From Promethearchaeia archaeon (GTDB lineage Archaea > Asgardarchaeota > Lokiarchaeia > Sigyniarchaeales > SOKP01), in assembly GCA_029856155.1 (NCBI GenBank), contig JAHQWL010000086.1, positions 1-17,389 on the forward strand: 17,389 nucleotides of DNA. The letters run 5' to 3'. The notes under the pieces are model-generated. The model ran no database searches and had not been told where the DNA came from. It saw nothing but the letters and a program-made list of their open reading frames with translations. The translations under genes and the position numbers were made by a program. Shown here one piece after another: positions 1,449 through 17,228 of this stretch; within the stretch, counting starts at the first letter, position 1; each line of letters opens with the position of its first letter.

Positions 1449-1449
1449 A

Positions 1450-2700: not shown

Positions 2701-2714
2701 AACTATAAATCCTC

Positions 2715-2734
2715 TTTTTTTTATTATCTTTATA
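2715..2734 (+). terminator. T8 tract (possible archaeal-type terminator) followed by a TTTATA TATA-like box for the next gene
   Basis: T run 2715-2722 lies 14 nt after the stop at 2700. TTTATA 2729-2734 lies about 20-25 nt before ATG 2754. This is a weak signal in AT-rich DNA. Confidence 0.3.
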
Positions 2735-2753
2735 GAATCATATATGGAATTTT

Positions 2754-3536
2754 ATGAAAACAGAATTATTTGAAGAAATTCTTGATAATTTAAGGAATTA
2801 TATTATCTCTGCATCCCAAAAAGGGAAAAATCTTATTACTTATCAAGAAAATTCTGAACCTCTTAAATTATTTGAAAAGTTGAATATTAAAGTTGAATTA
2901 GATAAGCATAAAGAAATAATTCTTCAAGAAGAAACAAAGCTCGAATTGGGGGGTATTAATAAAAAGTCATTTTCTTTAGTGTTTCCCTTCTCTAATTCAG
3001 AATTTATTACTCATATAAATGACGGAACAATTAATCTAATTGGGCAAAAAATCAAAGATATAAAAGAATTATCTATCGATTTTGGAATGATAATTCTAAT
3101 TGGAGGAAAATCTATTACCGAAAAAGATTGGGAATCTTTAAGACAATTTAATCTTATATCTAATGGAATAGAAGGATTTTTGATAAGAACAATTCCTAGA
3201 AAATTTTGGTGCAGAATTAGTGAGAACATACTGAAGAATTTTACATTTGAATTTTTAGGAAATGCTATTTTTTATTTATATAAACAACGTTTTAAAGATT
3301 TAATTGATTCTATGGAGATTTTTTTTGTTAATACGTATCCAAATGTAATAGATGAGTTTATTAAAATTACTTCTAAAATTAATACACATATAAATGAAAA
3401 ATGGTTAGAGAAAATAGAAAATTGGAAAAAAAGAATTGATTGCAATTATGATTGGGGATGTGAGATTTGTCCTTACCAAAAAGAATGTTATGAAATTAAA
3501 CAAGTATTAGTTGAAAGAGAAAAAATGGAGAAATAA
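2754..3536 (+). CDS. Truncated acetyl-CoA synthase beta (CdhC/AcsB)-like protein with C-terminal CX5CX2CX5C motif
   Basis: ELGG...DGTINLIG.KI...FGMIILIGG...IEGFL.R....FWCRISE...NFTFEFLGNAI..YK..F...IDSMEIFFV resembles the N-terminal domain of archaeal CdhC (DGKI..IGPDI...EGFM.....W.R.SK....GF....G) as I recall it. It lacks the A-cluster domain and ends in CNYDWGCEICPYQKEC. It is adjacent to cooC. Confidence 0.7.
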   Translation: MKTELFEEILDNLRNYIISASQKGKNLITYQENSEPLKLFEKLNIKVELDKHKEIILQEETKLELGGINKKSFSLVFPFSNSEFITHINDGTINLIGQKIKDIKELSIDFGMIILIGGKSITEKDWESLRQFNLISNGIEGFLIRTIPRKFWCRISENILKNFTFEFLGNAIFYLYKQRFKDLIDSMEIFFVNTYPNVIDEFIKITSKINTHINEKWLEKIENWKKRIDCNYDWGCEICPYQKECYEIKQVLVEREKMEK

Positions 3537-3557
3537 TACTCTAGAATTTTAGTTATT

Positions 3558-4355
3558 ATGAAAAAAAAGAAGGATAATGAAAAACCACTAACAATTTCGG
3601 TTGTTGGAAAGGGAGGCTCTGGTAAAAGCCTTATAACAACTCTCTTAGCAAAGAGTATATCAAAAGGATATGATTTTAAAATGCTTTTAATTGATGCGGA
3701 TCCAACGCATCCTCATTTAAGCCATATGGTAAATTTGGTTCCGGAAAAAAGTCTTGAGAAGTTAAGAACAGAAGTTATAGATGAGATTTTAACAAAAGCA
3801 AAAGATTTTGAAAAAGTAGCGGAAAACATAGACTTTGAAGTCTATAATGCTATAGCTGAAAATAAAGATTTTAGTTTATTTTCTATTGGTCAACCAGAAG
3901 GACCTGGGTGTTTTTGTCCTTCAAATACTCTTTTACGAAAGGTTATTGGTTCTATTTCTAAAGATTTTGATATAGTCCTAATTGATTGTGAAGCGGGGCT
4001 TGAACAGATCAATAGAATGGTAATAGAAAGTGTTGATATTCTCTTAATTGTTTCAGATATTTCAATAAGAAGTATTGAAACTGCTAACGCTATTCGTAAA
4101 AGTGCTAAGAAATTTACTAAGTACAAAAAACTTGGTATTATCTTGAATAGAGTCAAAGGAAATATTGATTTTATTCTTAATAAGTTAAAAGATCTTGAGC
4201 TACCTCTTTTGGGGGAAATTCCAGAAGATAATAATATTACAAAATTTGAGGTAACGGGGAAATCCATAATTGATCTCTCTGAAAATTCAAAAAGCTATCT
4301 GGCTCTAAAAAAATTAACAGAAATAATACTAAATCCAAAATTTTTAAAAAGTTAG
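3558..4355 (+). CDS. cooC: CooC/AcsF-type nickel-insertion ATPase (MinD/CbiA P-loop family)
   Basis: Deviant Walker A GKGGSGKS, IDADP, Ni-binding GPGCFC (CxC), and DCEAGLEQINR matching the CooC D-x-EAG-x-E-H/Q signature. Confidence 0.88.
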   Translation: MKKKKDNEKPLTISVVGKGGSGKSLITTLLAKSISKGYDFKMLLIDADPTHPHLSHMVNLVPEKSLEKLRTEVIDEILTKAKDFEKVAENIDFEVYNAIAENKDFSLFSIGQPEGPGCFCPSNTLLRKVIGSISKDFDIVLIDCEAGLEQINRMVIESVDILLIVSDISIRSIETANAIRKSAKKFTKYKKLGIILNRVKGNIDFILNKLKDLELPLLGEIPEDNNITKFEVTGKSIIDLSENSKSYLALKKLTEIILNPKFLKS

Positions 4356-4522
4356 TCTTTAAGTAATTTTAAATCCTATTATAATACTAATTTGAGTAAT
4401 AAAAAATCTTTTTAAGGTTGATCTGGAGAATTTATTATATATATAAAAATTAATTAATTTTGCATATAATCCAATTTAATTCTTTTATTGAAACGTGTTA
4501 AGTTTAAGGGTAAAAGAAATCT

Positions 4523-6244
4523 ATGACGCTAAATACTAAAAAAGTATTAATAATTTATGTCTTAATCTCTTTAACTTCCTCTATCATTGAAATTGTTTTT
4601 CTAAAATCGTTTTTTTATAGTTTTTGGATAACATATATTGGGGTTTTCTTCACTGGACATTATATTAGGCGTGCAATTAATGACTTCTTTAAACAATTTC
4701 ACATAAAAAAGGTTGTGAGATCTTTAATAACTCCTTGGATTATGTTTTCGCTTGTTGTTTTTTATGTACAACTCTATTTTATTTCTGATTTATTAGCAAG
4801 AGGCGAAGGATACCTAGGATTTAGTTATATCAGCTTTTTTATTTTTTTTTTGGGATTAATTATTTTGGTTTTACTCTCTATTAATCCTCTTATTAGAATT
4901 ATTGCCGTAGCATTCCATAGAAGAAAATCAAATTTATTTCCAATTAATAGAGTTGAGTATGTTGCAATGGAACATTTAAAAAGATCACCCCAGAATAGTC
5001 TATTGTTTTCTGAATTGAAAAATCGAATAAAGGGAACTTTTAATATCTTTATATCTAACCTACATTTTGATGAAGAAACTTCTATTTCTAGTATATATCA
5101 TTTGTGCGGACTTAGATTAGCTGATATTAATAATAATATAGTTAAGTTAAATCAAGATGGTCAAAAGCAAGAAAAAGTCTGGAATGATACACTTATTAAT
5201 CAAAATGGTAAATTTAATAAGATACTAACTAGTAGTAGCGTCCTTATAAGATCATTTATTGTATTATTCATACTAAGTCTTCTTAAAATATTTATTGGGT
5301 TATTTAATTCTGAGTCCTTGACTGCAGAAGGCTTTGAGAATTTTCTTGACTGTATCGCAGTTATATTAATTGGTATTGGTATTAAATACAGAAAAGAAAA
5401 GCTTGTCAATATAATTTTAATTAGTTTAATGGCTTTTACTGGTGGTTCTATTTTATATAGTTCAATTGAATCCCTAATACTTGGTCCTCACCAAATTTCA
5501 AATACACTGATTATTATAATAATTGCTATGATATCAATTTTCCTGAATACATATATGAGAGCGTTGAAAAATTTTGTTGGGAAAAAGAGTAGAAACTCAT
5601 CTCTGGTAGCAAGTGCTATAGATTCGAGGGTTAACGTAATTATTTCTATTGGTATAATTATAGGTGCTCTTTTTTCAGATTTTGGAAGGACTGTTAATGC
5701 AACATTTCTCTATTACCTAGACCCAATTATAGCAATAGTTATCTGTTTTTTTATTTTTAGAGAAGTTATTGAAATTTTTAAGGAATTTATTACCGGTAAT
5801 GAGGAAGATATCGAATTAGGAAGCTTTCAAATGGCTTATGAAGAAAATTTCAAAGAATACATTGTTAAATGGATCCTTACTGTTCTTTATCATAATGACC
5901 AAAAAACGGTCACTAATGAGCAATTAGATCAATTATTTCAAGATTCCTTAAGTAAAGGAGATTTGATATATACAGATTTATCTCATTTTGGTTTATACTT
6001 ATTTAAAGAAGAAGGAATTGGTTCTATAATTCATAGTCTTATTGATCTTGATGTTTTAATTCAATTTAATGGGGATAACATAAAAATAACAGAAAAAGGA
6101 AATTATATGTATGAAAATTTATATTCAAAACCACTTTTGGATGATATTCAGGATCCATTTGATTTCTTTTTCGAACAAAATTACGATTTTGATAGTTTAA
6201 GGCATAGAAAGCAAGAATTATTAGAGAATTATTCAAAAAATTGA
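4523..6244 (+). CDS. Cation diffusion facilitator (CDF/cation efflux) family membrane protein with extra N-terminal TM region and two winged-helix-like domains
   Basis: CDF core at about aa 240-420: SESLTAEGFENFLD (TM2), NSSLVASAIDSRVNV (TM5), YLDPIIAIVI (TM6). There are about 4 additional N-terminal hydrophobic helices and two soluble segments ending in wHTH-like L..L.L......KL/IT..G wings. Confidence 0.72.
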   Translation: MTLNTKKVLIIYVLISLTSSIIEIVFLKSFFYSFWITYIGVFFTGHYIRRAINDFFKQFHIKKVVRSLITPWIMFSLVVFYVQLYFISDLLARGEGYLGFSYISFFIFFLGLIILVLLSINPLIRIIAVAFHRRKSNLFPINRVEYVAMEHLKRSPQNSLLFSELKNRIKGTFNIFISNLHFDEETSISSIYHLCGLRLADINNNIVKLNQDGQKQEKVWNDTLINQNGKFNKILTSSSVLIRSFIVLFILSLLKIFIGLFNSESLTAEGFENFLDCIAVILIGIGIKYRKEKLVNIILISLMAFTGGSILYSSIESLILGPHQISNTLIIIIIAMISIFLNTYMRALKNFVGKKSRNSSLVASAIDSRVNVIISIGIIIGALFSDFGRTVNATFLYYLDPIIAIVICFFIFREVIEIFKEFITGNEEDIELGSFQMAYEENFKEYIVKWILTVLYHNDQKTVTNEQLDQLFQDSLSKGDLIYTDLSHFGLYLFKEEGIGSIIHSLIDLDVLIQFNGDNIKITEKGNYMYENLYSKPLLDDIQDPFDFFFEQNYDFDSLRHRKQELLENYSKN

Positions 6245-6257
6245 CTTTACAATATGT

Positions 6258-8660
6258 TCAGAATTTTAAAGTCTTTATCTTCCATGGACCTAATTTTATT
6301 TTATTTGAATCGAAGGACGAGAGTAAATCATAATTTAAGTCGATTTCTTTTACTCGATTTTTTATCAACCCTCCCTTTATTTTAATTATACTCTCTTTAT
6401 TAGATGGGTTAAAAAACCTTATAAAAGACCCATTATCACGTCTCCATAAATTAATTACCGAAATTGGAGGCTCTATAGATAAGAATTCATCAATATTTTT
6501 AGCAAAATGAAGATTCTCCTCGATTTCAATTCCAAAAAATTTGTAGTAATATGAATTCACATAAAATAAGGGAGAAACTGAATTATTCTCATCTGTAATT
6601 GATATGGCAAATTCATATCTTCCTTTTTTTGTTAATAGGTTTCGAATTTCAAAATTTTCCCGATTAATTATGAATTTTTGGCAATTTTTTTGAATATAGA
6701 TTATACCTTGCTGAGATCCCTTTAACCACATAAAATCTAATGTTTGGATATTTGTTCTTCTCGTCTCTTCAATCCCAAAAGGATAATTAATAATAGATTT
6801 CTTAATTTCAATTTTAGGTGTAAGTATTATTTCTTGTAATGAATCTGAATCAATAAAAAATTCAAGTCTATTTATTTCTCTATATTGAACTAATTCAATT
6901 TTAAACGTATGTTTTTTTAATTTCCCGATTATCGTGTTTCTCTCGACAACGTCATTTTGATATTGTCCCTTTAAAAACAGCTTATAGTTTTGCTTTTTAT
7001 TAAAATTTAGTTCAAAAACCTTGTTTTTCTTATACGCTATTTTAATAGTCTTCAAATCTTCTAAGATCTCTATGTTAAATAAAAACTCTGATTCTTCATG
7101 AGATTCTAAATCATTTTTCTTTGTATATGAAACAAATTTATATCCAAATTGCGGGATTTCCTCAATAATCTGGAAAACAGAATCTTGTTTAGAATAAATT
7201 GAAATTACATCACGTCTAGTGTACGATGTAGGATTAAATATAAAAATTTTTTTAGTTATATTCTTTATATCATTTTCTTTTTGACTTAATTCTTTTACTA
7301 AATAAGAAAGCGAATCATTAATGAACTTTTGACATCTTTCTTGAATTTCTTTATGAATTTGAAGACTAAGATCAGAAATAGTTATATTAGGGAATGTAAT
7401 TTCTATCTTTTCCAATTCTTCTTTGCCTAATTGAGTCTGAGTATAATCCCCTGATCGTATAAAAGGTACTGCATAACAATCATGAGCTTGAGCAAGTAAA
7501 AGCTTTTTCCATAAATCTTCAAATAAAGAATCATAACTTCTATGCCCAAAAAATCCTAAAATAGAATTAAGAACTTCTGCCGATAATAATAATATTTCCG
7601 AATTTTTATTTTGAAGAAACAACTCAGATGGAATAAAAATAAAATTTCCAAGAAAGAATTCATCCCGTTTATATTTGAATTCACCATTTTTTTCAATTAA
7701 TTGAAAAAAATCAGAACACTGTAAAAATTTACCAAAAATTTCTGAACTTTTAGATATACGCCAGACTTCCTCTTGAAAGGGTTGAGGATTCCTGAAATCT
7801 TCAAGATTAGAATAAATAATATGCTCCATAAAAGGACGAGCAACAGATTGGAATAATAAACTCGGAATTTCTTTAAAGAACGTTCCATGCCAATATTCTC
7901 CATTAAATACTCCTGATTGATCAACAATAGAATCAATTGAAGTACTATCTAACCCAATCCAATTAATATGTGAAGATATAGACGTTGGATTAACTCCTAA
8001 TAACCTAGCTCTCAAAGAGCCGTATTTTATATTAAATCCTTTTAAAATTTGAGGAATTTGTGGATGGAGTGAACTTTCAGAGCAGTAATAAATGTTGCAA
8101 TCTAAACCTAATTTTCTTAATTCCTTCAAACCATATTCAAATTGCTTAATATTTGACTCGGGACCTATAATTAAATTATATGGTTGAGAATAAGAAGGAT
8201 TTATAATTTCAAATTTCCCTTGTTTAACCAGTTTTAAAAAATATGAAATTTTATCAGTCGAATTCTGATTTAACCATTCTAGACATGAGATTGCAATTTC
8301 AAGATTATAAGGCATGTTGGTTTCAATCGCTAATTCCATCTTTTGTAAAAGTGCATCCAAAGCATGGTTAGGAGAATCAAATTCACAGAAACCAATGTTA
8401 TTGATGATAATACCTCCATGTCCTCCTATAATAAAATAGATTTTTATCAGTATTTCTTGACTTATTATTGAGGATAATTTATTTAAAATACTTTTATAGA
8501 GTTTTAATTTTGGTGCTTCTTCAGTTATATTCTTAATATCATTGAATTTTTCTCTTATTCTATTTAGATTGATTTTTTTCTTTGGGATTATGTTTTTTTC
8601 AACAAATTCTTCAACTAAATCAATAGCTTTTCCTAATGCTGAAATTTCTTCAGGCTTCAT
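6258..8660 (-). CDS. Divergent glycoside hydrolase family 38 (alpha-mannosidase-like) protein
   Basis: QGKFEII...YSQPYNLIIGPESNIKQFEYG and PQIPQILKGFNIKY match the GH38 N-terminal (G.WE..GG....D.NL.SGES..RQ..YG; LPQIL..GI) pattern. The middle domain has WKKLLLAQAHD (cf. W..LL.NQFHD), followed by IFNPTSYTR, YPFG and a C-terminal beta-sandwich-like region. Confidence 0.72.
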   Translation of the reverse strand: MKPEEISALGKAIDLVEEFVEKNIIPKKKINLNRIREKFNDIKNITEEAPKLKLYKSILNKLSSIISQEILIKIYFIIGGHGGIIINNIGFCEFDSPNHALDALLQKMELAIETNMPYNLEIAISCLEWLNQNSTDKISYFLKLVKQGKFEIINPSYSQPYNLIIGPESNIKQFEYGLKELRKLGLDCNIYYCSESSLHPQIPQILKGFNIKYGSLRARLLGVNPTSISSHINWIGLDSTSIDSIVDQSGVFNGEYWHGTFFKEIPSLLFQSVARPFMEHIIYSNLEDFRNPQPFQEEVWRISKSSEIFGKFLQCSDFFQLIEKNGEFKYKRDEFFLGNFIFIPSELFLQNKNSEILLLSAEVLNSILGFFGHRSYDSLFEDLWKKLLLAQAHDCYAVPFIRSGDYTQTQLGKEELEKIEITFPNITISDLSLQIHKEIQERCQKFINDSLSYLVKELSQKENDIKNITKKIFIFNPTSYTRRDVISIYSKQDSVFQIIEEIPQFGYKFVSYTKKNDLESHEESEFLFNIEILEDLKTIKIAYKKNKVFELNFNKKQNYKLFLKGQYQNDVVERNTIIGKLKKHTFKIELVQYREINRLEFFIDSDSLQEIILTPKIEIKKSIINYPFGIEETRRTNIQTLDFMWLKGSQQGIIYIQKNCQKFIINRENFEIRNLLTKKGRYEFAISITDENNSVSPLFYVNSYYYKFFGIEIEENLHFAKNIDEFLSIEPPISVINLWRRDNGSFIRFFNPSNKESIIKIKGGLIKNRVKEIDLNYDLLSSFDSNKIKLGPWKIKTLKF

Positions 8661-8696
8661 ATTCTAATCCCATGACATTTTTAATGTAATTAAAGT

Positions 8697-9368
8697 TTAT
8701 GGTAATGGTTTTTCTTTTTCAATATCTTCTGGTTTACGCCCTTTTTCTAGCTGTTCAAACCACCATTTATCCGTAGATATCATTTCTTTTGCTTTTTCTA
8801 GAACGGTTTCAATATTTTCAGATTTTACAATTACAACTCCGTTAATATCTCCAAAAATTAAGTCTCCTGTTTTAATTTTTCTTTCGCCACATTGAATTGG
8901 TTTCATCACAGATTCCAAATCTATTGCCATTCTACCACGAATTGAAGAACTTATTGTTCCTCTAGCAAAAATAGGAAATTTTAAATCAATTACCTGCGCA
9001 AGATCTCGAATAGGTCCATCAACTAAACCCCCTCTAAATCCTAACTTCATAAGAATTCTACTTGTACTCTGACCTAACCCCGCGGCTATCATTAGATTTG
9101 ACATATCAACACACATTATTGGAAATTTTGGAGTTTTTCTCAAAAATTTTACCAGACGAGCAATGATATTTCTATCAAGTGGCTCATCGGAAGGAGTCAT
9201 CTTCATAGTTCCTGCAAAACCTAATAACCTTGCACCAGGCCACATAGGTCTGATCCCCGCATCAATAAAACCCGGTTCAAATCCCAATTCATCTATAGCA
9301 TCTGAGACAGCACAAGTGTACAATCTAGAATACTCATTTAGGATAGATTCCATTTGTTTTTCATCCAT
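8697..9368 (-). CDS. RraA family protein / 4-hydroxy-4-methyl-2-oxoglutarate (HMG) aldolase-like class II pyruvate aldolase
   Basis: TCAVSDAIDELG, IRPM...LLGFAGT, GFRGGLVDGPIRD, KFPIFARG, GDLIFGDINGVVIV. The C-terminal extension is like that of long-form HMG/CHA aldolases. ATG at 9368 is preferred; GTG at 9377 is the alternative. Confidence 0.85.
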   Translation of the reverse strand: MDEKQMESILNEYSRLYTCAVSDAIDELGFEPGFIDAGIRPMWPGARLLGFAGTMKMTPSDEPLDRNIIARLVKFLRKTPKFPIMCVDMSNLMIAAGLGQSTSRILMKLGFRGGLVDGPIRDLAQVIDLKFPIFARGTISSSIRGRMAIDLESVMKPIQCGERKIKTGDLIFGDINGVVIVKSENIETVLEKAKEMISTDKWWFEQLEKGRKPEDIEKEKPLP

Positions 9369-9483
9369 GATTTTCACTGATTAATATTAATCTTATATGA
9401 TATTTGAAAAATTATTTTTTTAATGATATTAATTTGATTATAACACACAAAAAAAAGTATTTACATGAATGTAGGATATAAAC
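9369..9483. promoter_or_regulatory. Divergent promoter region (rraA-like/GH38 leftwards, ilvD rightwards) with 14-bp palindrome
   Basis: 115-bp AT-rich gap between head-to-head genes, containing the perfect palindrome GATTAATATTAATC at 9379-9392. Confidence 0.5.
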
Positions 9484-11154
9484 ATGAATGAGAAAGAGAT
9501 TGATTTAAAGAAAAGAAGTAAAACGATTTTTGAAGGTGTTAAAGATACACCTTTTAGATATGTCACATCTGGAATAATTCAAGGTTTAGGACTTGAGGAA
9601 AAAGAGATATACGAGAAACCTTTTATTGGAGTTGTAAATACATGGAATGAAGTAAATCCTGGGCATAAACATTTAAGAGATCTTGCAGAAGCGGTGAAAT
9701 ATGGTGTGATTGAAGCAGGAGGAATTCCATTTGAGTTTTGTACAGTTGGACCATGTGATGGATGGGCAAATGGGAATGAAGGAATGCGTTATATTCTTCC
9801 ACATAGAGAAACGATTGCAGATTCCATAGAATTAATGGTCCAAGCACATAGATTAGATGCTATGGTAACTATATCTAGCTGTGATAAAATAAATCCAGCA
9901 GTATTAATGGCTGCTGTTCGATTAGATATTCCAACAATTTGTGTTCCAGGAGGCCCTAACTTTTATGAAATTAGATTTAAACCTGATTATAAGGGAATTG
10001 AGCAAAGTAATTATGGAGATTTTATTCATAAATTGGATTGTATATCATGTGCCTCCTATGGTGCATGTGAATTGATGGGAACGGCTAATACAATACAATG
10101 TTTAATGGAAGCATTTGGAATGACGTTACCTAACGCAGCTACAATTCCAGCAATGACAAGAATGAAATATATAACTGCTAAAAATTCTGGAAGACAAATA
10201 ATAGAATTGTTGAAAAAAGGATTAACTGCATCTAAAATCATGACTAAAGAATCCCTAGAGAATGCTATAATGGTGGATGTAGCTATCGGGGGATCCACAA
10301 ATTCAGCACTTCATCTCCCTGCTATCGCACATGAAATGGGGATAGATTTTGATTTGGAAATCTTTAATGAATATAGTAAAAAGATTCCAACAATTGTAAA
10401 TGTTTCTCCATCGGGTGATTATGGAATTGTAGATTTATATAAAGCTGGAGGAATCCCTGCAGTTTTGAAAAGATTGAAAGATTTTATTCATTTGGATTGC
10501 TTAACAGTTTCTGGAAACACAATTGGAAAAGAAATTCGCAAATCTAAAGTATTAGACGATAAAGTAATAACCTCTTTTGACAAACCTGTTTATCCAGAGG
10601 GAGGAACTGTAATACTGAAAGGTAATTTAGCACCTGAGGGCGCAGTTGTGAAACAATCAGCAGTTAAAAATAAAGATATGTTAAAATTTAAAGGAACCGC
10701 TATTTGTTTCAACTTTGAACAAGATGCTATTGACGCTTTAACGTTAAATAAAATAGAAAATGGTTCAGTTATAATCATTCGATATGAAGGACCAAAAGGA
10801 GGACCAGGTATGCCAGAGTTGTTGGCAGTTACAGCAAATCTTATGACACGACGTAAATTGAATAGAGTCGCATTAATTACTGATGGACGATTTTCTGGAG
10901 GTACATCAGGTCCTTGTATTGGGCACGTAAGCCCAGAAGCTTATGTTGGTGGACCTATTGCTGTAGTAAAAGATGGAGATCCAATTAATATCGATATTCC
11001 TAATAGAATTCTTGAAGTGGAACTTTCAGAAGAAGAATTACAGAAACGATTCAAGAGTTGGAAACCACTTGAGAAGGAGATTAGAAGCAAAGCTCTCTTA
11101 AAATATAAAAAACTTGTAACATCTGCTGCAAAAGGAGCTATTCTTGAATTTTAA
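9484..11154 (+). CDS. ilvD: Dihydroxy-acid dehydratase / IlvD-Edd family Fe-S dehydratase
   Basis: KPFIGVVNTWNEVNPGHKHL, CDG, RETIADSIE, SSCDK, GACELMGTANT, GGSTN..LHL.AIA, LKGNLAP.GAVVK, RYEGPKGGPGMPE, ITDGRFSGGTSGPCIGHVSPEA. The family assignment is firm; the substrate is uncertain. Confidence 0.92.
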   Translation: MNEKEIDLKKRSKTIFEGVKDTPFRYVTSGIIQGLGLEEKEIYEKPFIGVVNTWNEVNPGHKHLRDLAEAVKYGVIEAGGIPFEFCTVGPCDGWANGNEGMRYILPHRETIADSIELMVQAHRLDAMVTISSCDKINPAVLMAAVRLDIPTICVPGGPNFYEIRFKPDYKGIEQSNYGDFIHKLDCISCASYGACELMGTANTIQCLMEAFGMTLPNAATIPAMTRMKYITAKNSGRQIIELLKKGLTASKIMTKESLENAIMVDVAIGGSTNSALHLPAIAHEMGIDFDLEIFNEYSKKIPTIVNVSPSGDYGIVDLYKAGGIPAVLKRLKDFIHLDCLTVSGNTIGKEIRKSKVLDDKVITSFDKPVYPEGGTVILKGNLAPEGAVVKQSAVKNKDMLKFKGTAICFNFEQDAIDALTLNKIENGSVIIIRYEGPKGGPGMPELLAVTANLMTRRKLNRVALITDGRFSGGTSGPCIGHVSPEAYVGGPIAVVKDGDPINIDIPNRILEVELSEEELQKRFKSWKPLEKEIRSKALLKYKKLVTSAAKGAILEF

Positions 11155-11163
11155 TTAATAAAG

Positions 11164-11188
11164 AAAATAAAAAAATTAATTTTATTTT
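11164..11188. terminator. Possible bidirectional terminator between convergent ilvD and MFS
   Basis: AAAATAAAA-7nt-TTTTATTTT inverted repeat providing T-rich tracts on both strands in the 32-bp convergent gap. The stem is A/T only. Confidence 0.3.
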
Positions 11189-12596
11189 ACATTCCAATCT
11201 TAGATTTCTTTTCTGTATGTATCTCAGTTAGTTTTTCTTTTATGTTTTTTAAATATTCACCACGAAGAGGATATTTAGACATTGCTAAAATAATGATTGA
11301 TAAAGCGATTGCTGGAAAAACAAAACCTAATAATCTCAAACCTAAAATAGTTCCCTGCGAAATTGTTGTTGGTTCATAAATCCTCCATCCTATATTAGTG
11401 AATACAAGACTAATTGCAAGAAATACGAAAATATATCCAACTCTTAAAAAGAATATATAAATACCAAAGTAACTTGCATCTCGCTTCGTGCCCGTGTTAA
11501 CCTCATCTTCATCGATTATGTCAGAAACAATAAGATCCTTTGAATATAAGGATCCCGCTAAACCTATTCCAACTAAAAAGAAGACTATTAATCCAGACCA
11601 TCTATCCGAAATAAACATCATAGGTGCTAAAGTTGCTATCCATACTGCTGAGGAAATCATCCACATCTTCCTTATTCCTATTTTAGCTGCCAAGGGTTTC
11701 CATAAAAAAGTAATAAATATTGCTGCAGATAAAAAGGTCAAACCTAATAATATAGATATAAACCATGAATCACCTTCACCAATACCTAGAACATATTTTC
11801 CATAAAGTGGTAAAATTGTTGGAAGTATTGTATCCACAAAAAAATCTCCTATAAAAGCCGGAATTGCCCATCGAAAAGATTTATTTTTCATACAAATTTT
11901 AAACGAGGCAAAGAAACCTGGAACATTTTTATGATCTTGTTGGAATTCTTCTCTTTCGCGCGGAGAGAATTTTAAAAATAATAACCCAACAATTACGATA
12001 ATCCCAGTTAATACAATTCCAAAAATCGCATATTTATTTAGATAAGATGGATCTGAATAATCTTTAATAAAAAAACTGGGCAAAATAAAAGCAAAGATTA
12101 GCCCAAAAATCGCAAAAACTTGACGAATATTATTTGCTTTAATGCGAGATTCTTCTGTTATAAATATTTCTGGCAGCATAGATGTAAGATTAATGTCATA
12201 CGTAGTATAGCACAGCTCAAAAATTAAAATTATAATGATGAAATAAATGAAATTACTTGTTTTGTTAGTTATTCCGTATGAGAGTGGTGGAAAGAATAAA
12301 AAGAACATTACAAGACTAAGTGGAACTAATGCAATCATAATGTAGGGTCTTCTTCGCCCCCATCTAGTATGCGTTCTATCACTAATGTATCCTAATATAG
12401 GATCATTGAAAGCATTCCATATAGACCATATTAAAAATCCAACAGATATTAATACTACATCGAGCCCCACAACGGCATAATAAAATGTAAATATTAAAAA
12501 TGTAAATGCTTGGTAAGCCGTAATCAAGGAAATTTGACCAAAACTATAAAAAGCAGCATCTCTATTTGAATATTCTTTTGATCGGTTCTCTTCCAT
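11187..12596 (-). CDS. MFS transporter, glycoside-pentoside-hexuronide (GPH; MelB/UidB-like) family
   Basis: About 12 hydrophobic segments; WNAFNDPILGYISDRTHTRWGRRRPY (GPH TM2/loop signature) and SDIIDEDEVNTGTKRDASYFG. ATG 12596 is preferred over GTG 12605. Confidence 0.9.
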   Translation of the reverse strand: MEENRSKEYSNRDAAFYSFGQISLITAYQAFTFLIFTFYYAVVGLDVVLISVGFLIWSIWNAFNDPILGYISDRTHTRWGRRRPYIMIALVPLSLVMFFLFFPPLSYGITNKTSNFIYFIIIILIFELCYTTYDINLTSMLPEIFITEESRIKANNIRQVFAIFGLIFAFILPSFFIKDYSDPSYLNKYAIFGIVLTGIIVIVGLLFLKFSPREREEFQQDHKNVPGFFASFKICMKNKSFRWAIPAFIGDFFVDTILPTILPLYGKYVLGIGEGDSWFISILLGLTFLSAAIFITFLWKPLAAKIGIRKMWMISSAVWIATLAPMMFISDRWSGLIVFFLVGIGLAGSLYSKDLIVSDIIDEDEVNTGTKRDASYFGIYIFFLRVGYIFVFLAISLVFTNIGWRIYEPTTISQGTILGLRLLGFVFPAIALSIIILAMSKYPLRGEYLKNIKEKLTEIHTEKKSKIGM

Positions 12597-12617
12597 TTTA
12601 AACACGTTTAAGTTAAA

Positions 12618-12629
12618 TTTTTATAAAAA
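12618..12629 (-). promoter_or_regulatory. Putative archaeal TATA box for the GPH transporter
   Basis: TTTTTATAAAAA; the TTTATAAA core lies 24-31 nt upstream of ATG 12596, typical spacing for a leaderless or short-leader archaeal transcript. Confidence 0.35.
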
Positions 12630-12670
12630 CTTTAGATTAAACTCATATAAATAACTATCTAATAAAGGGA

Positions 12671-13906
12671 TTATTTTTTTGGTAATTGTATACTACATGG
12701 AAAAATACCAACTTTAGGTGTTTTCCCATAAACATCTTCTAATGTTGTTATCATTTCATTGAAATTTTTCCTAAATATTGTTTTAGGCGGGTAAAAATGC
12801 AAGACATCAGCTTTATTAATATTAGGTGAATAGATTCCAAAATTTTTATTCTTAATGAATCCTTTAAACCAAAGAAAATCCCCCCAATTTTTGTATAATT
12901 TGGCACCTGTTTCTGCTTGCAAGGAATGAAAACCTCTTCCCTCACTCGCGGCTGTTAAAAAAACTACTGCACCCTTCCGTTTTATCAATCCTTTAGTACT
13001 AAAAATGAAATTAAATCCTTTAATTGCTTGAGATAATTCAGTATCTTCAGGATACAAATTAAAAAAACCTATATCTAAATTTATATCAGATGATAAATCA
13101 GTAGAATATACTAATTTTCCGGATTCCATAGCTTTTCTATGGGCTTTAATAAAATCTCCGGCAAACACTCCTGCTATCCCTCTTTTCATTGTTGATACAA
13201 TATTTATGGAAAAATCTAATCCTACTTTCTTACAGACATCTTCAATATCTTTTCTTAATTCAGATACAATACCAACTCCAATTCCTATACCTCTAACACC
13301 TGCTTTGTGGTTCTCCTCAAGAGTCTGAATCCCACATATACCAGGTAATATAATTTTAGCTCCACCTCCAAATCCTGCTAATGGATGGGGTATTACAGTT
13401 CCTATGGCAATCTTCACATCAGCACTATGGTAAGTTTTGTTTAAATAAATGGGAGTTCCAAAATTAGATTTTCCTACAAAAATTAAATTTTCATATGGAT
13501 GATGGTTTTCAATATTGACCCTTTCTACTATACTTAATCCCACTTTTTTAATTGAATCTTGTCTATTTAAAGGCCTGTGAGAACCAAGAGCATAAATTAT
13601 AGTGATTTTCTCATCATCTATCCCAGCATCGTTTAATTGATCTAAAACTATATTTAATATTTCCTCTAAATAGGAGGGTCTTGAAATGTCTTCAATAACA
13701 ATAACAGCATTTTGTTTTCCTCGAGCAATTTTTAGGATTGTTGGTGTTCCAATAGGATTATTAATAGCAGTTTCAATTTCTTCTTTCGATATTTCAGGAG
13801 CATCTTTCATTTTAAATAATTTAACATCCCATGTATCCGGAAATTCAAGAGCAAGATTCTGATCCCCATACCAAGCAGCCCAAGGAATTTTAAAGATTTG
13901 AACCAT
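12671..13906 (-). CDS. larA: LarA-family (lactate racemase domain, nickel-pincer nucleotide-dependent) 2-hydroxyacid racemase/epimerase
   Basis: AINNPIG, VIEDISRP (Asp/Arg), ALGSHRP (catalytic His), PHPLAGFGGGAKIILPG (His + NPN-binding Lys), ENH (Ni-His), SQAIK. ATG 13906; TTG 13912 is the alternative. Confidence 0.85.
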   Translation of the reverse strand: MVQIFKIPWAAWYGDQNLALEFPDTWDVKLFKMKDAPEISKEEIETAINNPIGTPTILKIARGKQNAVIVIEDISRPSYLEEILNIVLDQLNDAGIDDEKITIIYALGSHRPLNRQDSIKKVGLSIVERVNIENHHPYENLIFVGKSNFGTPIYLNKTYHSADVKIAIGTVIPHPLAGFGGGAKIILPGICGIQTLEENHKAGVRGIGIGVGIVSELRKDIEDVCKKVGLDFSINIVSTMKRGIAGVFAGDFIKAHRKAMESGKLVYSTDLSSDINLDIGFFNLYPEDTELSQAIKGFNFIFSTKGLIKRKGAVVFLTAASEGRGFHSLQAETGAKLYKNWGDFLWFKGFIKNKNFGIYSPNINKADVLHFYPPKTIFRKNFNEMITTLEDVYGKTPKVGIFPCSIQLPKK

Positions 13907-13920
13907 TTTCAACCCTTAAA

Positions 13921-15783
13921 TTAATAATTATTAATATTTAGTTCTTTTAATTTATTAATTGTTGGGATACCATTTTCGTCCCATCCTCTAAATTTATAAT
14001 ATTCTTCTAACATATTATCAATTGTAAGTACTTTGTTCTTAGTTATACCCCTTTCTAATGCAAACCTCAATCGTGGAGGTATTGTATCATCTTTTCTCGT
14101 GATTCCACACTTAGTATTAAAAAATCTTTTTAAATTAAATATCCTCTCTCCAATTTTTAATAATTCCTTTAATGAAAATGTTATGCTAGTTAAATAATAA
14201 ATAGACTTTAGAATTTTGTCAAATAAATCCTCTACAATCTGAGTCCCGGAAGTCATTGTTTGTTTACAAATCCCTAAAGAATTAACCACTTCAGATAAAT
14301 TTTGAGTAATAGCAATATCCCTCGCAAATTGAGGATCATCACTAGTACGATCCCGGATGCGTTTCTCTTTTGTTATTTTTAAAATATCATTAAAACCAGT
14401 AAAACCAGAATATTGGTCATTTGCATAGCCCCTACCATGGCATGCCCCACGATTGGATGTAGCATATTGTAAGCCAAGGGGAAAGATTGCACGAGGGTCA
14501 TGCATTGGAGCTTCTAAACCCTTAATATCTGATAGTAATTCTTCAGATCCTTTCCCTATTATTTCAGAAGCTTTTCTAGATCCATTACCTAAAATCTCCC
14601 CTATTCCTTCCTTCTTACAAATTAATTCTGTAAGCTTAATAATCGCATCGGCATCCCCCCATTCCAAAGGAAATCCAACATCTTCTTGAGTTATAATTCC
14701 CTTCTCATAACAATCTAAAGCAAATGCAACCGTACATCCAGTTGAGATAGTATCTACCCCATATCTATTACATAGATCATTTAAATAAGCAATAGCTTCA
14801 ACATCAGAAAGTAAACACATAGCACCAAATGCTGCTGTAGTTTCATATTCGGCACCCGCTGCATTTTCAATCTTGTATGGCCCTTCAGTTATCTCTATTT
14901 CTCTACCGCAACTAAATGGACACATAAAACAAGGTTTATTCCTTACATGTAATTTTTCAAGCACAATTGCCCCTGAAATGTCATTTACTCCTCTCCATTT
15001 ATGCAAGGTCCAATTTTTATGAGGTACATCAGACAATCTTTCAAAATAATCGATGTTATTAGTCCCTAGATTTCGCAATATTTCTGCCATTGGTGATTCT
15101 TTAAAAGCTTTAAATATTATCCTCGAGATTTCATTGAATTTTTTATCATCGAAATACTCAATTTTTTTAGTACTCTTTACAGCAATCGCTTTTAGGTTTT
15201 TTGATCCCATTACTGCTCCCATACCAGTTCTTCCTACTGCTCTATGATGATCATTAATTATTGATGCTAAATTTACTAACTTTTCTCCAGAAGGGCCAAT
15301 ACAAGCTACTTTAAATTGCTTCCCTAATTTATTTTGTAATTCTTGGATAGTTTTATCTGTTGTTAATCCCCATAATTCGGACGCATCTTTTAATTCAAAA
15401 TGATCATCCTCTATTATAAGGTAAACTGGAGAATCAGATTTATTTTTAAAAATCATACCATTTAGAGTTTTTCTTAATTCTGCTGCAAAAAATCCTCCAG
15501 ATAATCCCTCTCCATAAATATTTGTTAATGGGGACCTTGCTGAAACTGAATAAAACCCAGAACAAGGATAGGATGTACCCGTTAAAAGACCATTCATGAA
15601 AATTAATGGGTTTTTTTCAGTAAGAGGATCATTTTCGTATGATTTCCATTGCATTAAATAATCAATTCCAAAACCTGGACCACCTAAGAACTTTTTAATA
15701 AAATCTTTATCATAAAAATTCTCGGTAAATGATTTTTTTTTAAGATCTATTTCCAAAATCTTTCCATATTTTTCTTTTGTCGT
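13921..15783 (-). CDS. aor: Tungsten-dependent aldehyde:ferredoxin oxidoreductase (AOR/WOR family)
   Basis: YGKILEIDL, FLGGPGFG, SARSPLT, SGGFFAAELR, CIGPSGE, GRTGMGAVMGSKNLKAI, CFMCPFSC, EYET, GVDTIS, KGLE, RGACH, SLGIC, EYYKFRGWDENGIPT. The start is uncertain: the ORF track uses TTG 15756, but homology extends upstream to an ACG at 15783. Confidence 0.92.
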   Translation of the reverse strand, partial: TTKEKYGKILEIDLKKKSFTENFYDKDFIKKFLGGPGFGIDYLMQWKSYENDPLTEKNPLIFMNGLLTGTSYPCSGFYSVSARSPLTNIYGEGLSGGFFAAELRKTLNGMIFKNKSDSPVYLIIEDDHFELKDASELWGLTTDKTIQELQNKLGKQFKVACIGPSGEKLVNLASIINDHHRAVGRTGMGAVMGSKNLKAIAVKSTKKIEYFDDKKFNEISRIIFKAFKESPMAEILRNLGTNNIDYFERLSDVPHKNWTLHKWRGVNDISGAIVLEKLHVRNKPCFMCPFSCGREIEITEGPYKIENAAGAEYETTAAFGAMCLLSDVEAIAYLNDLCNRYGVDTISTGCTVAFALDCYEKGIITQEDVGFPLEWGDADAIIKLTELICKKEGIGEILGNGSRKASEIIGKGSEELLSDIKGLEAPMHDPRAIFPLGLQYATSNRGACHGRGYANDQYSGFTGFNDILKITKEKRIRDRTSDDPQFARDIAITQNLSEVVNSLGICKQTMTSGTQIVEDLFDKILKSIYYLTSITFSLKELLKIGERIFNLKRFFNTKCGITRKDDTIPPRLRFALERGITKNKVLTIDNMLEEYYKFRGWDENGIPTINKLKELNINNY

Positions 15784-15790
15784 CTGAAGG

Positions 15791-15796
15791 TCACCT
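15791..15796 (-). promoter_or_regulatory. Shine-Dalgarno-like AGGTGA upstream of aor
   Basis: The minus strand reads AGGTGA-ccttcag-ACG. GGTGA is the archaeal-type SD, here 7 nt before an in-frame ACG. Confidence 0.5.
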
Positions 15797-15971
15797 ATTA
15801 GATTCTTTTTTTAAAATATTCAGTCATATTTATTTCTTTGTCTAACAAAATTGTGATTTTATCGGAGAGATTAAATTCAAAAACTAATTTAATTAAAAGC
15901 AATTTCATAGAGTATAAAATTCTTTACATTCGAGATAAATAAAATCTAAAATACTGGCGCAAGATTTAATT

Positions 15972-17228
15972 ATGGTTGAAAAACTTACTCGAAAAGCTAC
16001 TTTATCAATCTATCTTGTAGCACTTGCTGGAAACATAGCATTTACCGTTGAAAACCAATTCTATAATGTATTCTTATACAATGAAATTGCCCCCAATACA
16101 TTTTATATATCACTAATGGTAATGATTACTGCAATTGTATCTACAATTACTGCAATTGTAATGGGGGCAATAAGCGATGTTAGAGGGAAAAGAAAATCTT
16201 TTATGGTTTACGGATTTATCTTATGGGCTTTTACAACAGCAATTTTTCCATTTGCAGCATTAGTAAGACCTCTCATAATGGCAGTTTTTACAGCTATTAT
16301 ATTTGACTCAATTATGACTTATTTTGGTGCAACTGCGTATGATGCTGCATTAAAAGCACACGTAATTGATATAACCACCTTAGAGAATAGAGGTAAAGCC
16401 ACGGCAATTATTGAGATAATGACACTTCTTTCCACCCTAATAATTTATGGAGTATCAGGGCTTATTGTATTAGCTATTGGATATTATTATTTCTTTATTC
16501 TAATAGGTATTTTAACAGGAGTTATCGGGCTTGCAGGTTCTTACTTTTTAAAGGATGCTGAGAATTTAAAACCACTAGATATAAGTGTATGGGAACATCT
16601 TAAAAGCACGTTTAATATCAACTTTTTAAAAGCAAATAAAGATTGCTTCTTAGTATTACTAGGGATTGGAATATGGGCAATAGGATTTAATGTCTTTTTT
16701 CCATTTATCTTGATTTACTTAGAGCATTATGTTGGTTTAGAGTTATTGATTGCTTCTTTAGTTGTCTTCATTGCATTAATGGTTTCGATTCTTTCAGGTG
16801 TTTTTATTGGAAAATTTATTGATAAAGTGGGAAGGAAGAAAATTGCTATAGTTTCTGTTGTTTTATTAAGTATTTCATTAGTGCTTTATTCATTTACAAC
16901 TGATTTAGTACTTTTAATAATCACAGGGATATTATGGGTGTTTTTTATGTCAACATTTCATATTTCTTCTCAAACTTGGGTGAATGACTTATACCCTAAA
17001 GAAAAAGCTGGTCAATTTACTGGATATTTTTTGGTTTTCAACGTCTTAATTGGAATGTTAATAGGTCCATGGATAGGGAACTTAATTGCTGAACGATGGG
17101 GGGCTCCAATCGTAATAGACGGAATTCCTGGATTAGTTCCACCCCCATTAATATATTCCGTTGCAGCAATCATTATGCTTTTCTCTATAATTCCTATTCT
17201 TTTAGCAAAGGAACTGAAAAAGTCATAA
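15972..17228 (+). CDS. MFS transporter (MFS_1), substrate unknown
   Basis: About 12 hydrophobic segments; motif A in both halves (GAISDVRGKRK; GKFIDKVGRKK); divergent from aor. Confidence 0.9.
   Translation: MVEKLTRKATLSIYLVALAGNIAFTVENQFYNVFLYNEIAPNTFYISLMVMITAIVSTITAIVMGAISDVRGKRKSFMVYGFILWAFTTAIFPFAALVRPLIMAVFTAIIFDSIMTYFGATAYDAALKAHVIDITTLENRGKATAIIEIMTLLSTLIIYGVSGLIVLAIGYYYFFILIGILTGVIGLAGSYFLKDAENLKPLDISVWEHLKSTFNINFLKANKDCFLVLLGIGIWAIGFNVFFPFILIYLEHYVGLELLIASLVVFIALMVSILSGVFIGKFIDKVGRKKIAIVSVVLLSISLVLYSFTTDLVLLIITGILWVFFMSTFHISSQTWVNDLYPKEKAGQFTGYFLVFNVLIGMLIGPWIGNLIAERWGAPIVIDGIPGLVPPPLIYSVAAIIMLFSIIPILLAKELKKS

Follow-up and report, generated by a model that had tools for sequence, protein, structure and literature searches.

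A conserved lokiarchaeal gene cluster that may serve non-phosphorylative, ferredoxin-linked breakdown of a glycoside-derived sugar

What task, if any, is shared by a glycoside hydrolase-like protein, a putative aldolase, a dehydratase, a homolog of nickel-dependent racemases, a tungsten-type enzyme, and two transporters that are encoded side by side in a lokiarchaeal genome? The question is raised by positions 6258 to 17228 of a 17,389-nucleotide stretch of DNA, analyzed at its full length and called the window here, from a Promethearchaeia archaeon of the class Lokiarchaeia (assembly GCA_029856155.1, contig JAHQWL010000086.1). The genome, G000 in our comparison, has 4.1 Mb and about 30% G+C, and the window makes up the start, probably all, of its contig C85. 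An earlier note, made from the sequence alone, had named seven genes and combined them into a kinase-free pathway for sugars and sugar acids; their coordinates and strands match the open reading frames (ORFs), and Pfam agrees on the families. Our answer, to which we give a little less than even confidence, is that the cluster is a Lokiarchaeia-specific modular gene set through which a glycoside-derived sugar is broken down to pyruvate oxidatively and without phosphorylation.

The grouping of the genes is an observation that does not depend on this answer. With the single-copy RraA-like gene serving as the anchor, we searched its flanking DNA with all window proteins by tblastn in 161 Lokiarchaeia genomes from 30 genera. 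Orthologs of the anchor occur in 37 of these genomes and 13 of the genera, and 13 of the loci are untruncated, with at least 6 kb on either side. The gene for IlvD2, a dehydratase, is present in all 13 untruncated loci, the gene for a hydrolase resembling glycoside hydrolase family 38 (GH38) in 11, that for the aldehyde:ferredoxin oxidoreductase (AOR) of the cluster in 11 (a twelfth locus has it 12 kb away), that for the GPH-family transporter in 9, and that for the LarA homolog in 6. The same linkage pattern is seen in 37 metagenome contigs of at least 7 kb. Gene order and strand vary among genera, which argues for selection on linkage and against plain inheritance of a block. Conserved synteny, the check that the earlier note had called for, was thus found across 13 genera, and with the rearranged order and the non-orthologous replacements described below, the grouping exceeds chance. 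By these counts, the module comprises the GPH transporter, the GH38-like hydrolase, the RraA-like protein, IlvD2, and the AOR, with LarA as an optional member. The second transporter, of the major facilitator superfamily (MFS), had been counted as part of the cluster, but it is probably a passenger: among the 37 loci from genomes it adjoins the cluster in a single one, and otherwise on 2 metagenome contigs, all from the closest relatives.

We consider it probable that the cluster is a co-functional sugar-acid module. That its genes have no common pathway, being neighbors by descent that act independently, seems to us highly improbable. Every genome concerned comes from one class, and the second MFS gene, a CDF (cation efflux) gene, and a set of genes around a GlcD-like oxidase gene are clearly lineage-specific neighbors. 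Yet the linkage persists through rearrangement, strand changes, and insertions in 13 genera, distant homologs of the GPH transporter and the GH38-like protein (about 27% identity) were recruited again in an operon of different composition, and, among the eight candidates scored per genome, an ortholog of the AOR turned up only where the RraA-like gene is present as well.

No further recurrent member emerged when Pfam was applied to the variable genes of the other loci; the genes found there once each encode an M28 peptidase, a DUF3604 protein, a radical SAM protein, an IS605 TnpB, a GH15 enzyme, and an amidohydrolase. A scan of genome contigs for bacterial counterparts returned only Promethearchaeota records (a few of them with bacterial labels) and one 32% match in Caldivirga. 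Two contigs labeled as metagenome-assembled genomes of Nanopelagicaceae and Deferrimicrobium (L080 and L085) carry this Asgard cluster, with RraA-like proteins 74 to 78% identical to that of the window, and are probably misbinned or mislabeled. On a metagenome contig with 59% G+C (L149, positions 644 to 12313), genes for a LarA-like protein, a short-chain dehydrogenase/reductase (SDR), RraA (53%), and IlvD (55%) form an operon divergent from two GH2 genes; given this distant variant, the same enzyme logic exists beyond the low-GC Loki lineage. No paper describing the cluster was found in the literature searched.

IlvD2 (9484..11154, plus strand) has both IlvD/Edd domains at full length (Pfam ILVD_EDD_N and ILVD_EDD_C, 384 and 245 bits). 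It scores 629.8 bits with the NCBIfam model for ilvD (TIGR00110; cut-off, 618.15) and stays far below the cut-offs for sugar-acid dehydratases (L-arabinonate, 435 versus 882; YjhG/YagF xylonate, 273 versus 808; Edd, 249 versus 708), and its best solved relatives are dihydroxy-acid dehydratases (DHADs). The earlier note had allowed that a sole branched-chain dehydratase of the genome would undo its scheme. That objection falls, because contig C44 encodes a second IlvD, 42% identical to IlvD2 and with a higher ilvD score (670.7), of a type that most genomes of the class possess; the accessory IlvD2 type occurs in 57 of the 161 genomes, about 20 of which lack RraA. Six genomes (G076, G077, G068, G069, G079, and G151) hold two or three IlvD2-type copies, 62 to 80% identical to that of the window, so this accessory subfamily has diversified further. 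DHAD-type enzymes are able to dehydrate D-gluconate, and the Sulfolobus enzyme, SsDHAD, also takes D-glycerate (PMC6692406).

In the genus of the window, IlvD2, with or without LarA, is also found without RraA, the GH38-like protein, and the AOR, beside genes for GlcD-like and CCG proteins, and it may therefore have a second, simpler role, such as the dehydration of glycerate. Taken further, this would make IlvD2 chiefly a dehydratase of D-glycerate or other short 2,3-dihydroxy acids, LarA a racemase of glycerate or a related hydroxy acid, GlcD/CCG a D-2-hydroxyacid dehydrogenase, and the GH38-like protein a hydrolase that frees glycerate from a mannosylglycerate-type solute, a combination that we regard as very unlikely. 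The adjacency just described, in which CdhC-like and CooC-like genes also take part, would fit it, as would the wider distribution of IlvD2 compared with RraA, the activity of SsDHAD on D-glycerate (PMC6692406), and the racemization of glycerate by some LarA homologs (PMC11770544). The sole NCBIfam match of the GH38-like protein is indeed to mannosylglycerate hydrolase, but it is weak, at 30 bits where the cut-off is 1138; only a single genus shows the GlcD/CCG adjacency, and the RraA-like protein and the dedicated AOR would be left without a role.

The RraA-like protein (8697..9377, minus strand; Pfam RraA-like, 84.7 bits), encoded by a single gene in the genome, is a putative metal-dependent pyruvate aldolase or 2-keto-3-deoxy-acid lyase. 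When it is aligned with 3NOJ, an HMG/CHA aldolase (HMG, 4-hydroxy-4-methyl-2-oxoglutarate; CHA, 4-carboxy-4-hydroxy-2-oxoadipate), its R124 and D125 fall at the catalytic Arg-Asp pair and are invariant in 13 orthologs, and an invariant Gln103 takes the position of Asp102, the second Asp of the metal shell. The RraA fold and the Arg-Asp pair are thus common to both proteins, though the match amounts to just 46.8 bits, and the score with the NCBIfam CHA aldolase model (NF006731) is 64.7 bits, below the cut-off of 179. Both HMG/CHA aldolase and the FlDet enzyme of strain UMI-01 have the RraA fold and use a divalent metal to convert 4-hydroxy-2-keto acids (PMC8563752). FlDet, however, is no aldolase: it dehydrates and decarboxylates 2-keto-3-deoxy-D-glucarate to alpha-ketoglutaric (2-oxoglutarate) semialdehyde (PMC8563752). 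The assignment of an aldolase in the earlier note therefore stands as far as the catalytic pair is concerned, and cleavage is a putative step.

Since FlDet makes 2-oxoglutarate semialdehyde (PMC8563752), the cluster might instead encode a route resembling the Weimberg or aldarate pathways, in which the RraA-like protein would dehydrate a 2-keto-3-deoxy acid, with or without decarboxylation, the AOR would produce 2-oxoglutarate, and a pentoside or a hexuronide would serve as substrate. Carriers of hexuronides are known among GPH transporters, the nearest characterized relatives of LarA are malate racemases, which act on dicarboxylates, and a semialdehyde would suit an AOR. We nevertheless think this improbable. 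We know of no IlvD-family aldarate dehydratase, the hydrolase has the fold of GH38, a family acting on hexopyranosides, the SDR of the sister clusters described below has no match to uronate dehydrogenase structures at E values up to 1e-10, and the Arg-Asp pair is equally compatible with aldolase chemistry.

By sequence alone, the GH38-like protein (800 residues; 6258..8660, minus strand), also encoded once in the genome, could hardly be placed: the Pfam domain Glyco_hydro_38N passes its threshold (31.1 versus 25 bits), GH57 scores alike (31.0 bits), and weak GH38N, GH38C, and GH38C2 domains appear together only in distant relatives. The predicted structure upholds the weak match on which the earlier note had relied. 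In a Foldseek search of the PDB with an AlphaFold model (pLDDT of 92.2, built on a 46-sequence alignment), the top 40 matches were all GH38 alpha-mannosidases, aligned over the full length (about 900 to 1050 alignment columns) at 10 to 14% identity, with TM scores of 0.54 to 0.72 (0.64 to 0.72 for the bacterial and fungal enzymes). Membership in GH57 was rejected, with TM scores of about 0.3, far below those of the GH38 matches. The modeled fold is that of GH38 alpha-mannosidases, with a (beta/alpha)7 barrel, a helical middle part, and C-terminal beta-sandwich domains, and it extends over the same set of domains as the enzymes of Streptococcus pyogenes (2WYH) and Enterococcus (5KBP) and Ams1 (6LZ1), at 12 to 13% identity. 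Residues H81, E195, D288, H393, and D394 are invariant or nearly so; judged by eye, the motifs resemble those of GH38 and the H-D motif corresponds to the HHD motif of that family. An invariant Glu appears to stand at the place where the GH38 Asp nucleophile would be expected. An exhaustive profile search among 1.8 billion proteins yielded 82 representatives at E values up to 1e-30. The protein is thus a member of a small sister family of GH38, and homology does not give its specificity.

The GPH-family (MFS_2) cation symporter (11187..12605, minus strand; Pfam MFS_2, 193.9 bits) scores 164.8 bits with the gph model TIGR00792, below the cut-off of 231, and matches MelB, YagG, and the glucuronide transporter more weakly. 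Upstream of it in the same direction lies the gene for the LarA homolog (12671..13912, minus strand; Pfam Lar_N, 184 bits), an accessory member of the cluster. By its residues, this protein belongs to the LarA superfamily of racemases and epimerases of 2-hydroxy acids that depend on a nickel-pincer nucleotide: equivalents of R75, H108, H174, K184, H200, Q295, and K298 are all present in comparison with Mar2, IpLarA, and LarA1, the model has TM scores of 0.75 to 0.79 to LarA structures, and the genome encodes LarB, LarC, and LarE, all scoring above their cut-offs. It fits none of the characterized subgroups (LAR, MAR, GntE, HGR, and HHR) by published criteria (PMC11770544). Its best NCBIfam match is to the malate racemase LarAH6 (232 bits versus a cut-off of 500), and LarAH10 is also far below its cut-off. 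In residues 340 to 372, the hidden Markov model alignment to LarA1 conflicts with the secondary structure of the model and the loop has a pLDDT below 50, so positions 358 and 359 are not reliably placed; a pairing of N342-W343-G344 with the Q-W358-T359 of LarA1 was guessed by eye and not used.

IlvD/Edd sugar-acid dehydratases take acids of the gluconate (threo) configuration at C2-C3. An epimerase acting at C2 would therefore admit acids of the mannonate (erythro) type, as does GntE, which interconverts D-gluconate and D-mannonate (PMC7583248). GntE sets a precedent for the epimerization of aldonates within sugar-acid metabolism, and the LarA of the window shares with it and with other LarA homologs the nickel-pincer chemistry and both catalytic His residues (PMC7583248, PMC11770544). 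It lies outside the GntE group, having Pro-Leu after the second His (positions 175 and 176), where GntE has Glu-Val and lactate racemases have Phe-Phe. The epimerization proposed in the earlier note is thus supported by the catalytic and cofactor residues and by larBCE, but a gene present in 6 of 13 untruncated loci cannot encode an obligatory step.

One gap in the earlier scheme is that it names no enzyme that makes the aldonate, and here the AOR (13921..15756, minus strand; Pfam AFOR_N and AFOR_C, 219 and 398 bits) becomes central. Judging from its sequence, the protein is a member of the tungsten aldehyde:ferredoxin oxidoreductase family: its closest PDB entries are AORs proper (9MQX, 395 bits; 1AOR, 371 bits), and it keeps the CxxCxxxC motif and the fourth Cys of the [4Fe-4S] cluster as well as the equivalents of Glu313 and His448. 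The genome encodes 16 AOR paralogs, this protein among them; the next best is 39% identical to it, and the protein represents an orthogroup specific to the cluster. Orthologs (60 to 93% identity) were found in 27 of the 161 genomes, all 27 of which are RraA-positive, and they lie on the same contig as the RraA-like gene or on a neighboring one.

In three genomes of families other than that of the window, the RraA locus has a different composition. G030 contains a tight codirectional operon (gaps of 3 to 40 bp) for GPH, GH38-like, RraA, an extended SDR, a protein of the metallo-beta-lactamase (MBL) fold, IlvD, and LarA; G027 has RraA, SDR, MBL, LarA, and IlvD at the locus; and G034 has GPH, GH38-like, RraA, and SDR on a contig that ends within the SDR gene. 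None of these loci includes an AOR gene. RraA, SDR, MBL, and IlvD, again without AOR, are encoded together on the metagenome contigs L141, L142, and L144, with LarA on the first two and the GH38-like protein and GPH on the last two. It is in the SDR-type operon that GPH and the GH38-like protein are the distant homologs mentioned above. Among the Lokiarchaeia genomes, the SDR ortholog occurs only in these three, none of which has an ortholog of the cluster AOR among the candidates scored, and the window's genome has no ortholog of the sister-cluster SDR or MBL. The longer metagenome contigs comprise 19 AOR-type and 3 SDR-type loci. No locus examined has both AOR and SDR plus MBL.

An SDR followed by a lactonase-type hydrolase is the usual route from a free sugar to its aldonic acid, and we infer that the SDR and the MBL-fold protein of the sister clusters carry out this conversion. 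UlaG is an example of a sugar lactonase with the MBL fold (PMC3219644). Searches of PDB and NCBIfam with the two proteins gave no clue to the substrate, just generic epimerase/dehydratase and glyoxalase II-like matches. Because AOR and SDR plus MBL are mutually exclusive, and because the scheme is otherwise left without an enzyme for this step, the AOR may fill the same slot and oxidize the sugar itself, with ferredoxin as the acceptor. We put this forward tentatively, as a reading whose chances we rate below even.

Several points weigh against it and against the wider scheme. We know of no AOR-family enzyme that oxidizes an aldose, and no paper on an aldose-oxidizing AOR or a "glucose ferredoxin oxidoreductase" was found in the literature searched. 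Sugars exist mainly as cyclic hemiacetals, a form that makes them poor substrates for an AOR, and the protein is nearest to the broad-specificity AOR proper, whose known sugar-related substrate is glyceraldehyde. The split between AOR and SDR tracks phylogeny (families f1, f5, and f6 versus f2 and f4), so that it may stand for only one or two evolutionary events, and neither the SDR nor the MBL-fold protein has a close match to a characterized sugar dehydrogenase or lactonase. Beyond the AOR, IlvD2 clears the NCBI cut-off for a true DHAD and is present in those roughly 20 genomes without RraA, and the specificity residues of LarA could not be placed. It is the lack of a known precedent, the cyclic form of sugars, and the phylogenetic split that keep our confidence in sugar oxidation by the AOR at the level stated.

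According to the earlier note, the AOR oxidizes the aldehyde fragment. If this were its only substrate (glyceraldehyde, glycolaldehyde, or lactaldehyde), the sugar acid would have to be imported or made by an unlinked enzyme, an arrangement that we hold to be possible but rather unlikely. The similarity to AOR proper speaks for it, as does the archaeal branched Entner-Doudoroff (ED) pathway, of which an aldehyde oxidoreductase is an accepted step (PMC2063504). In G027, a gene for an iron-type alcohol dehydrogenase that is divergent to the RraA-like gene would offer an alternative means of aldehyde disposal, and the follow-up steps could fall to the 15 further AOR paralogs and the MOFRL glycerate kinase that the window's genome encodes. 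On the other side, AOR-type clusters would then have no sugar oxidizer and SDR-type clusters no aldehyde oxidizer, so that two unlinked activities must be assumed. The window's genome lacks orthologs of both the SDR and the MBL-fold protein. The strict exclusivity of AOR and SDR plus MBL would also be left unexplained.

In the reading in which the AOR acts on the sugar, the analysis establishes the identity of the genes, the folds and catalytic residues of their products, the conserved linkage, and the exclusivity of AOR and SDR plus MBL; the substrates, the order of the steps, and the place of the AOR among them are what we infer. A glycoside would be imported by the GPH symporter and hydrolyzed by the GH38-like enzyme in the cytoplasm. 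Oxidation of the free aldose to its aldonic acid would fall to the dedicated tungsten AOR, which would pass the electrons to ferredoxin, or, in the sister clusters, to the extended SDR and the MBL-fold lactonase. Where LarA is encoded, it would invert C2, making an erythro (mannonate-type) acid suitable for the dehydratase. The DHAD-like IlvD2 would then convert the acid to a 2-keto-3-deoxy acid, and the RraA-like protein would cleave this to pyruvate and a short aldehyde, which could be oxidized by the same or another AOR. For the clusters with LarA, D-mannose is a reasonable, if weakly indicated, first candidate, because of the GH38 fold of the hydrolase and because contig L149 places LarA-like, SDR, RraA, and IlvD genes beside two GH2 genes; glucose, galactose, pentoses, and 6-deoxyhexoses are also possible.

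In its most economical form, one AOR would oxidize both the aldose and glyceraldehyde, one IlvD2 would act as the dehydratase for the aldonate as well as for glycerate, and the RraA-like protein would perform the cleavage, together amounting to a natural minimal kinase-free glycolysis. Were this true, a hexose would yield two pyruvate and reduced ferredoxin with zero ATP input, and the AOR would be the first aldose:ferredoxin oxidoreductase; we think it a long shot. Pfam searches of all window ORFs bear out the claim that kinases, NAD(P) dehydrogenases, and class I aldolases are absent from the window, since the five ORFs beyond the seven genes belong to none of these families. "Kinase-free" is accurate for the window and the cluster but not for the genome, which has a MOFRL-type glycerate kinase gene on contig C102.

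The logic of the pathway would match that of the archaeal ED branch, the Dahms-type clusters of Escherichia coli, and a synthetic cascade, with enzyme families that differ from all three. The E. coli clusters yagEFGH and yjhGH have the same architecture, with a glycoside hydrolase, a GPH-family symporter, an IlvD/Edd sugar-acid dehydratase, and a pyruvate-forming aldolase; they differ in having a class I aldolase of the dihydrodipicolinate synthase (DHDPS) family and a GH43-like hydrolase and in lacking AOR and LarA. IlvD2 belongs to another IlvD/Edd clade than YjhG/YagF, as its score for that model shows, and the match of the GPH transporter to YagG is likewise below threshold. A tungsten AOR with ferredoxin as the acceptor was reportedly proposed by Mukund and Adams in 1991 to serve a non-phosphorylated ED-type glycolysis, "pyroglycolysis," an idea said to have been dropped later for Pyrococcus. 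The AOR studied here differs from that of Pyrococcus furiosus (1AOR) in its genetic linkage to a dehydratase gene and the gene of a putative aldolase.

In the non-phosphorylative and branched ED pathways of archaea (Thermoproteus tenax, Sulfolobus, and Thermoplasmatales), the sugar is likewise converted via an aldonate and a 2-keto-3-deoxy acid to pyruvate and an aldehyde, the intermediate that is cleaved is unphosphorylated, and the aldehyde is oxidized by a dehydrogenase or oxidoreductase (PMC2063504). Every enzyme family is different, however: an enolase-type dehydratase and a class I aldolase for 2-keto-3-deoxygluconate and its 6-phosphate (KD(P)G) act there, whereas an IlvD-type dehydratase and an RraA-like protein would act here. 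The cluster has no NAD(P) glucose dehydrogenase and adds the tungsten AOR, a glycosidase, a transporter, and the optional nickel-pincer epimerase. In the window, Pfam gave no match for an NAD(P) glucose dehydrogenase, an enolase-type gluconate dehydratase, or a class I KD(P)G aldolase; DHDPS-family proteins are encoded elsewhere in the genome. Parts of the three-carbon branch of the ED pathway are present, namely, the aldehyde oxidoreductase in the cluster and the glycerate kinase gene on C102. The synthetic cascade from glucose to pyruvate, as outlined in PMC6692406 (citing Guterl 2012), is kinase-free and consists of glucose dehydrogenase, DHAD, 2-keto-3-deoxygluconate aldolase, aldehyde dehydrogenase, and, again, DHAD. 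In that outline, it resembles the proposed pathway in using a DHAD-type dehydratase on gluconate (SsDHAD also on glycerate), an aldolase, and aldehyde oxidation without ATP or phosphorylation; it is man-made, NAD dependent, and equipped with a class I aldolase, whereas the natural cluster would use ferredoxin by way of a tungsten enzyme.

The genes appear to form four transcription units: RraA-like to GH38-like across a 36-bp gap, AOR to LarA to GPH with intervals of 8 and 65 bp, and ilvD2 and the second MFS gene each on its own. Between the divergent RraA-like and ilvD2 genes lies a presumptive promoter region (9378..9483), and a MAFFT alignment of 23 orthologous regions reveals an AT-rich block kept across several genera (about 9408 to 9446 in the window), which holds the near-palindrome TAATGATATTAATTTGATTA, followed at the end by the TATA-like ATTATAA. 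The block could be a promoter or operator element. It was rejected as a shared operator of the cluster, having no second copy beyond chance in the AOR/MFS region (the second divergent intergenic region, 15757..15971) or elsewhere in the window, and co-regulation of the cluster is therefore left unsupported. In genome G076 (locus L052, 10910 to 12187), an inserted gene of the IS605 OrfB/TnpB type separates the RraA-like gene from ilvD2 and splits the conserved divergent promoter.

The remaining genes of the window are neighbors of restricted distribution. The probable passenger transporter (15972..17228, plus strand; Pfam MFS_1, 133 bits) has a paralog (45% identity) on contig C11 of the same genome, where it is grouped with two GPH paralogs (52 to 55% identity) and an SDR between about 11 and 51 kb, a group that may be a second sugar-uptake island. 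At the other end (positions 3 to 4355, plus strand), four codirectional genes encode an FAD oxidase resembling GlcD, an Fe-S protein with a CCG domain, a CdhC-like protein of 260 residues whose gene occurs once in the genome, and a CooC/MinD-like ATPase. Their adjacency to IlvD2, confined to the genus of the window, extends to loci without RraA, the GH38-like protein, and the AOR; one possibility is that they represent a hydroxy-acid dehydrogenase and a small nickel-site-like protein with its own ATPase. The CDF gene (4523 to 6244, plus strand), shared only with the closest relatives, encodes 573 residues, with the Pfam domain beginning at residue 241 after a long N-terminal extension that has no family match.

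The archaeal ancestor of eukaryotes has close relatives in the Lokiarchaeia, whose diet is mostly inferred from genomes. The cluster offers candidate activities for a sister family of GH38, for a DHAD paralog that perhaps acts on sugar acids, for an RraA-type lyase of 2-keto-3-deoxy sugar acids, and possibly for an aldose-oxidizing tungsten enzyme. A natural, efficient glycerate dehydratase would lift a known bottleneck of cell-free kinase-free cascades (PMC6692406). For the organisms themselves, the cluster would give about one-quarter of Lokiarchaeia an ATP-free route from glycosides to pyruvate in which all electrons pass to ferredoxin, an output that would suit syntrophs producing hydrogen or formate.

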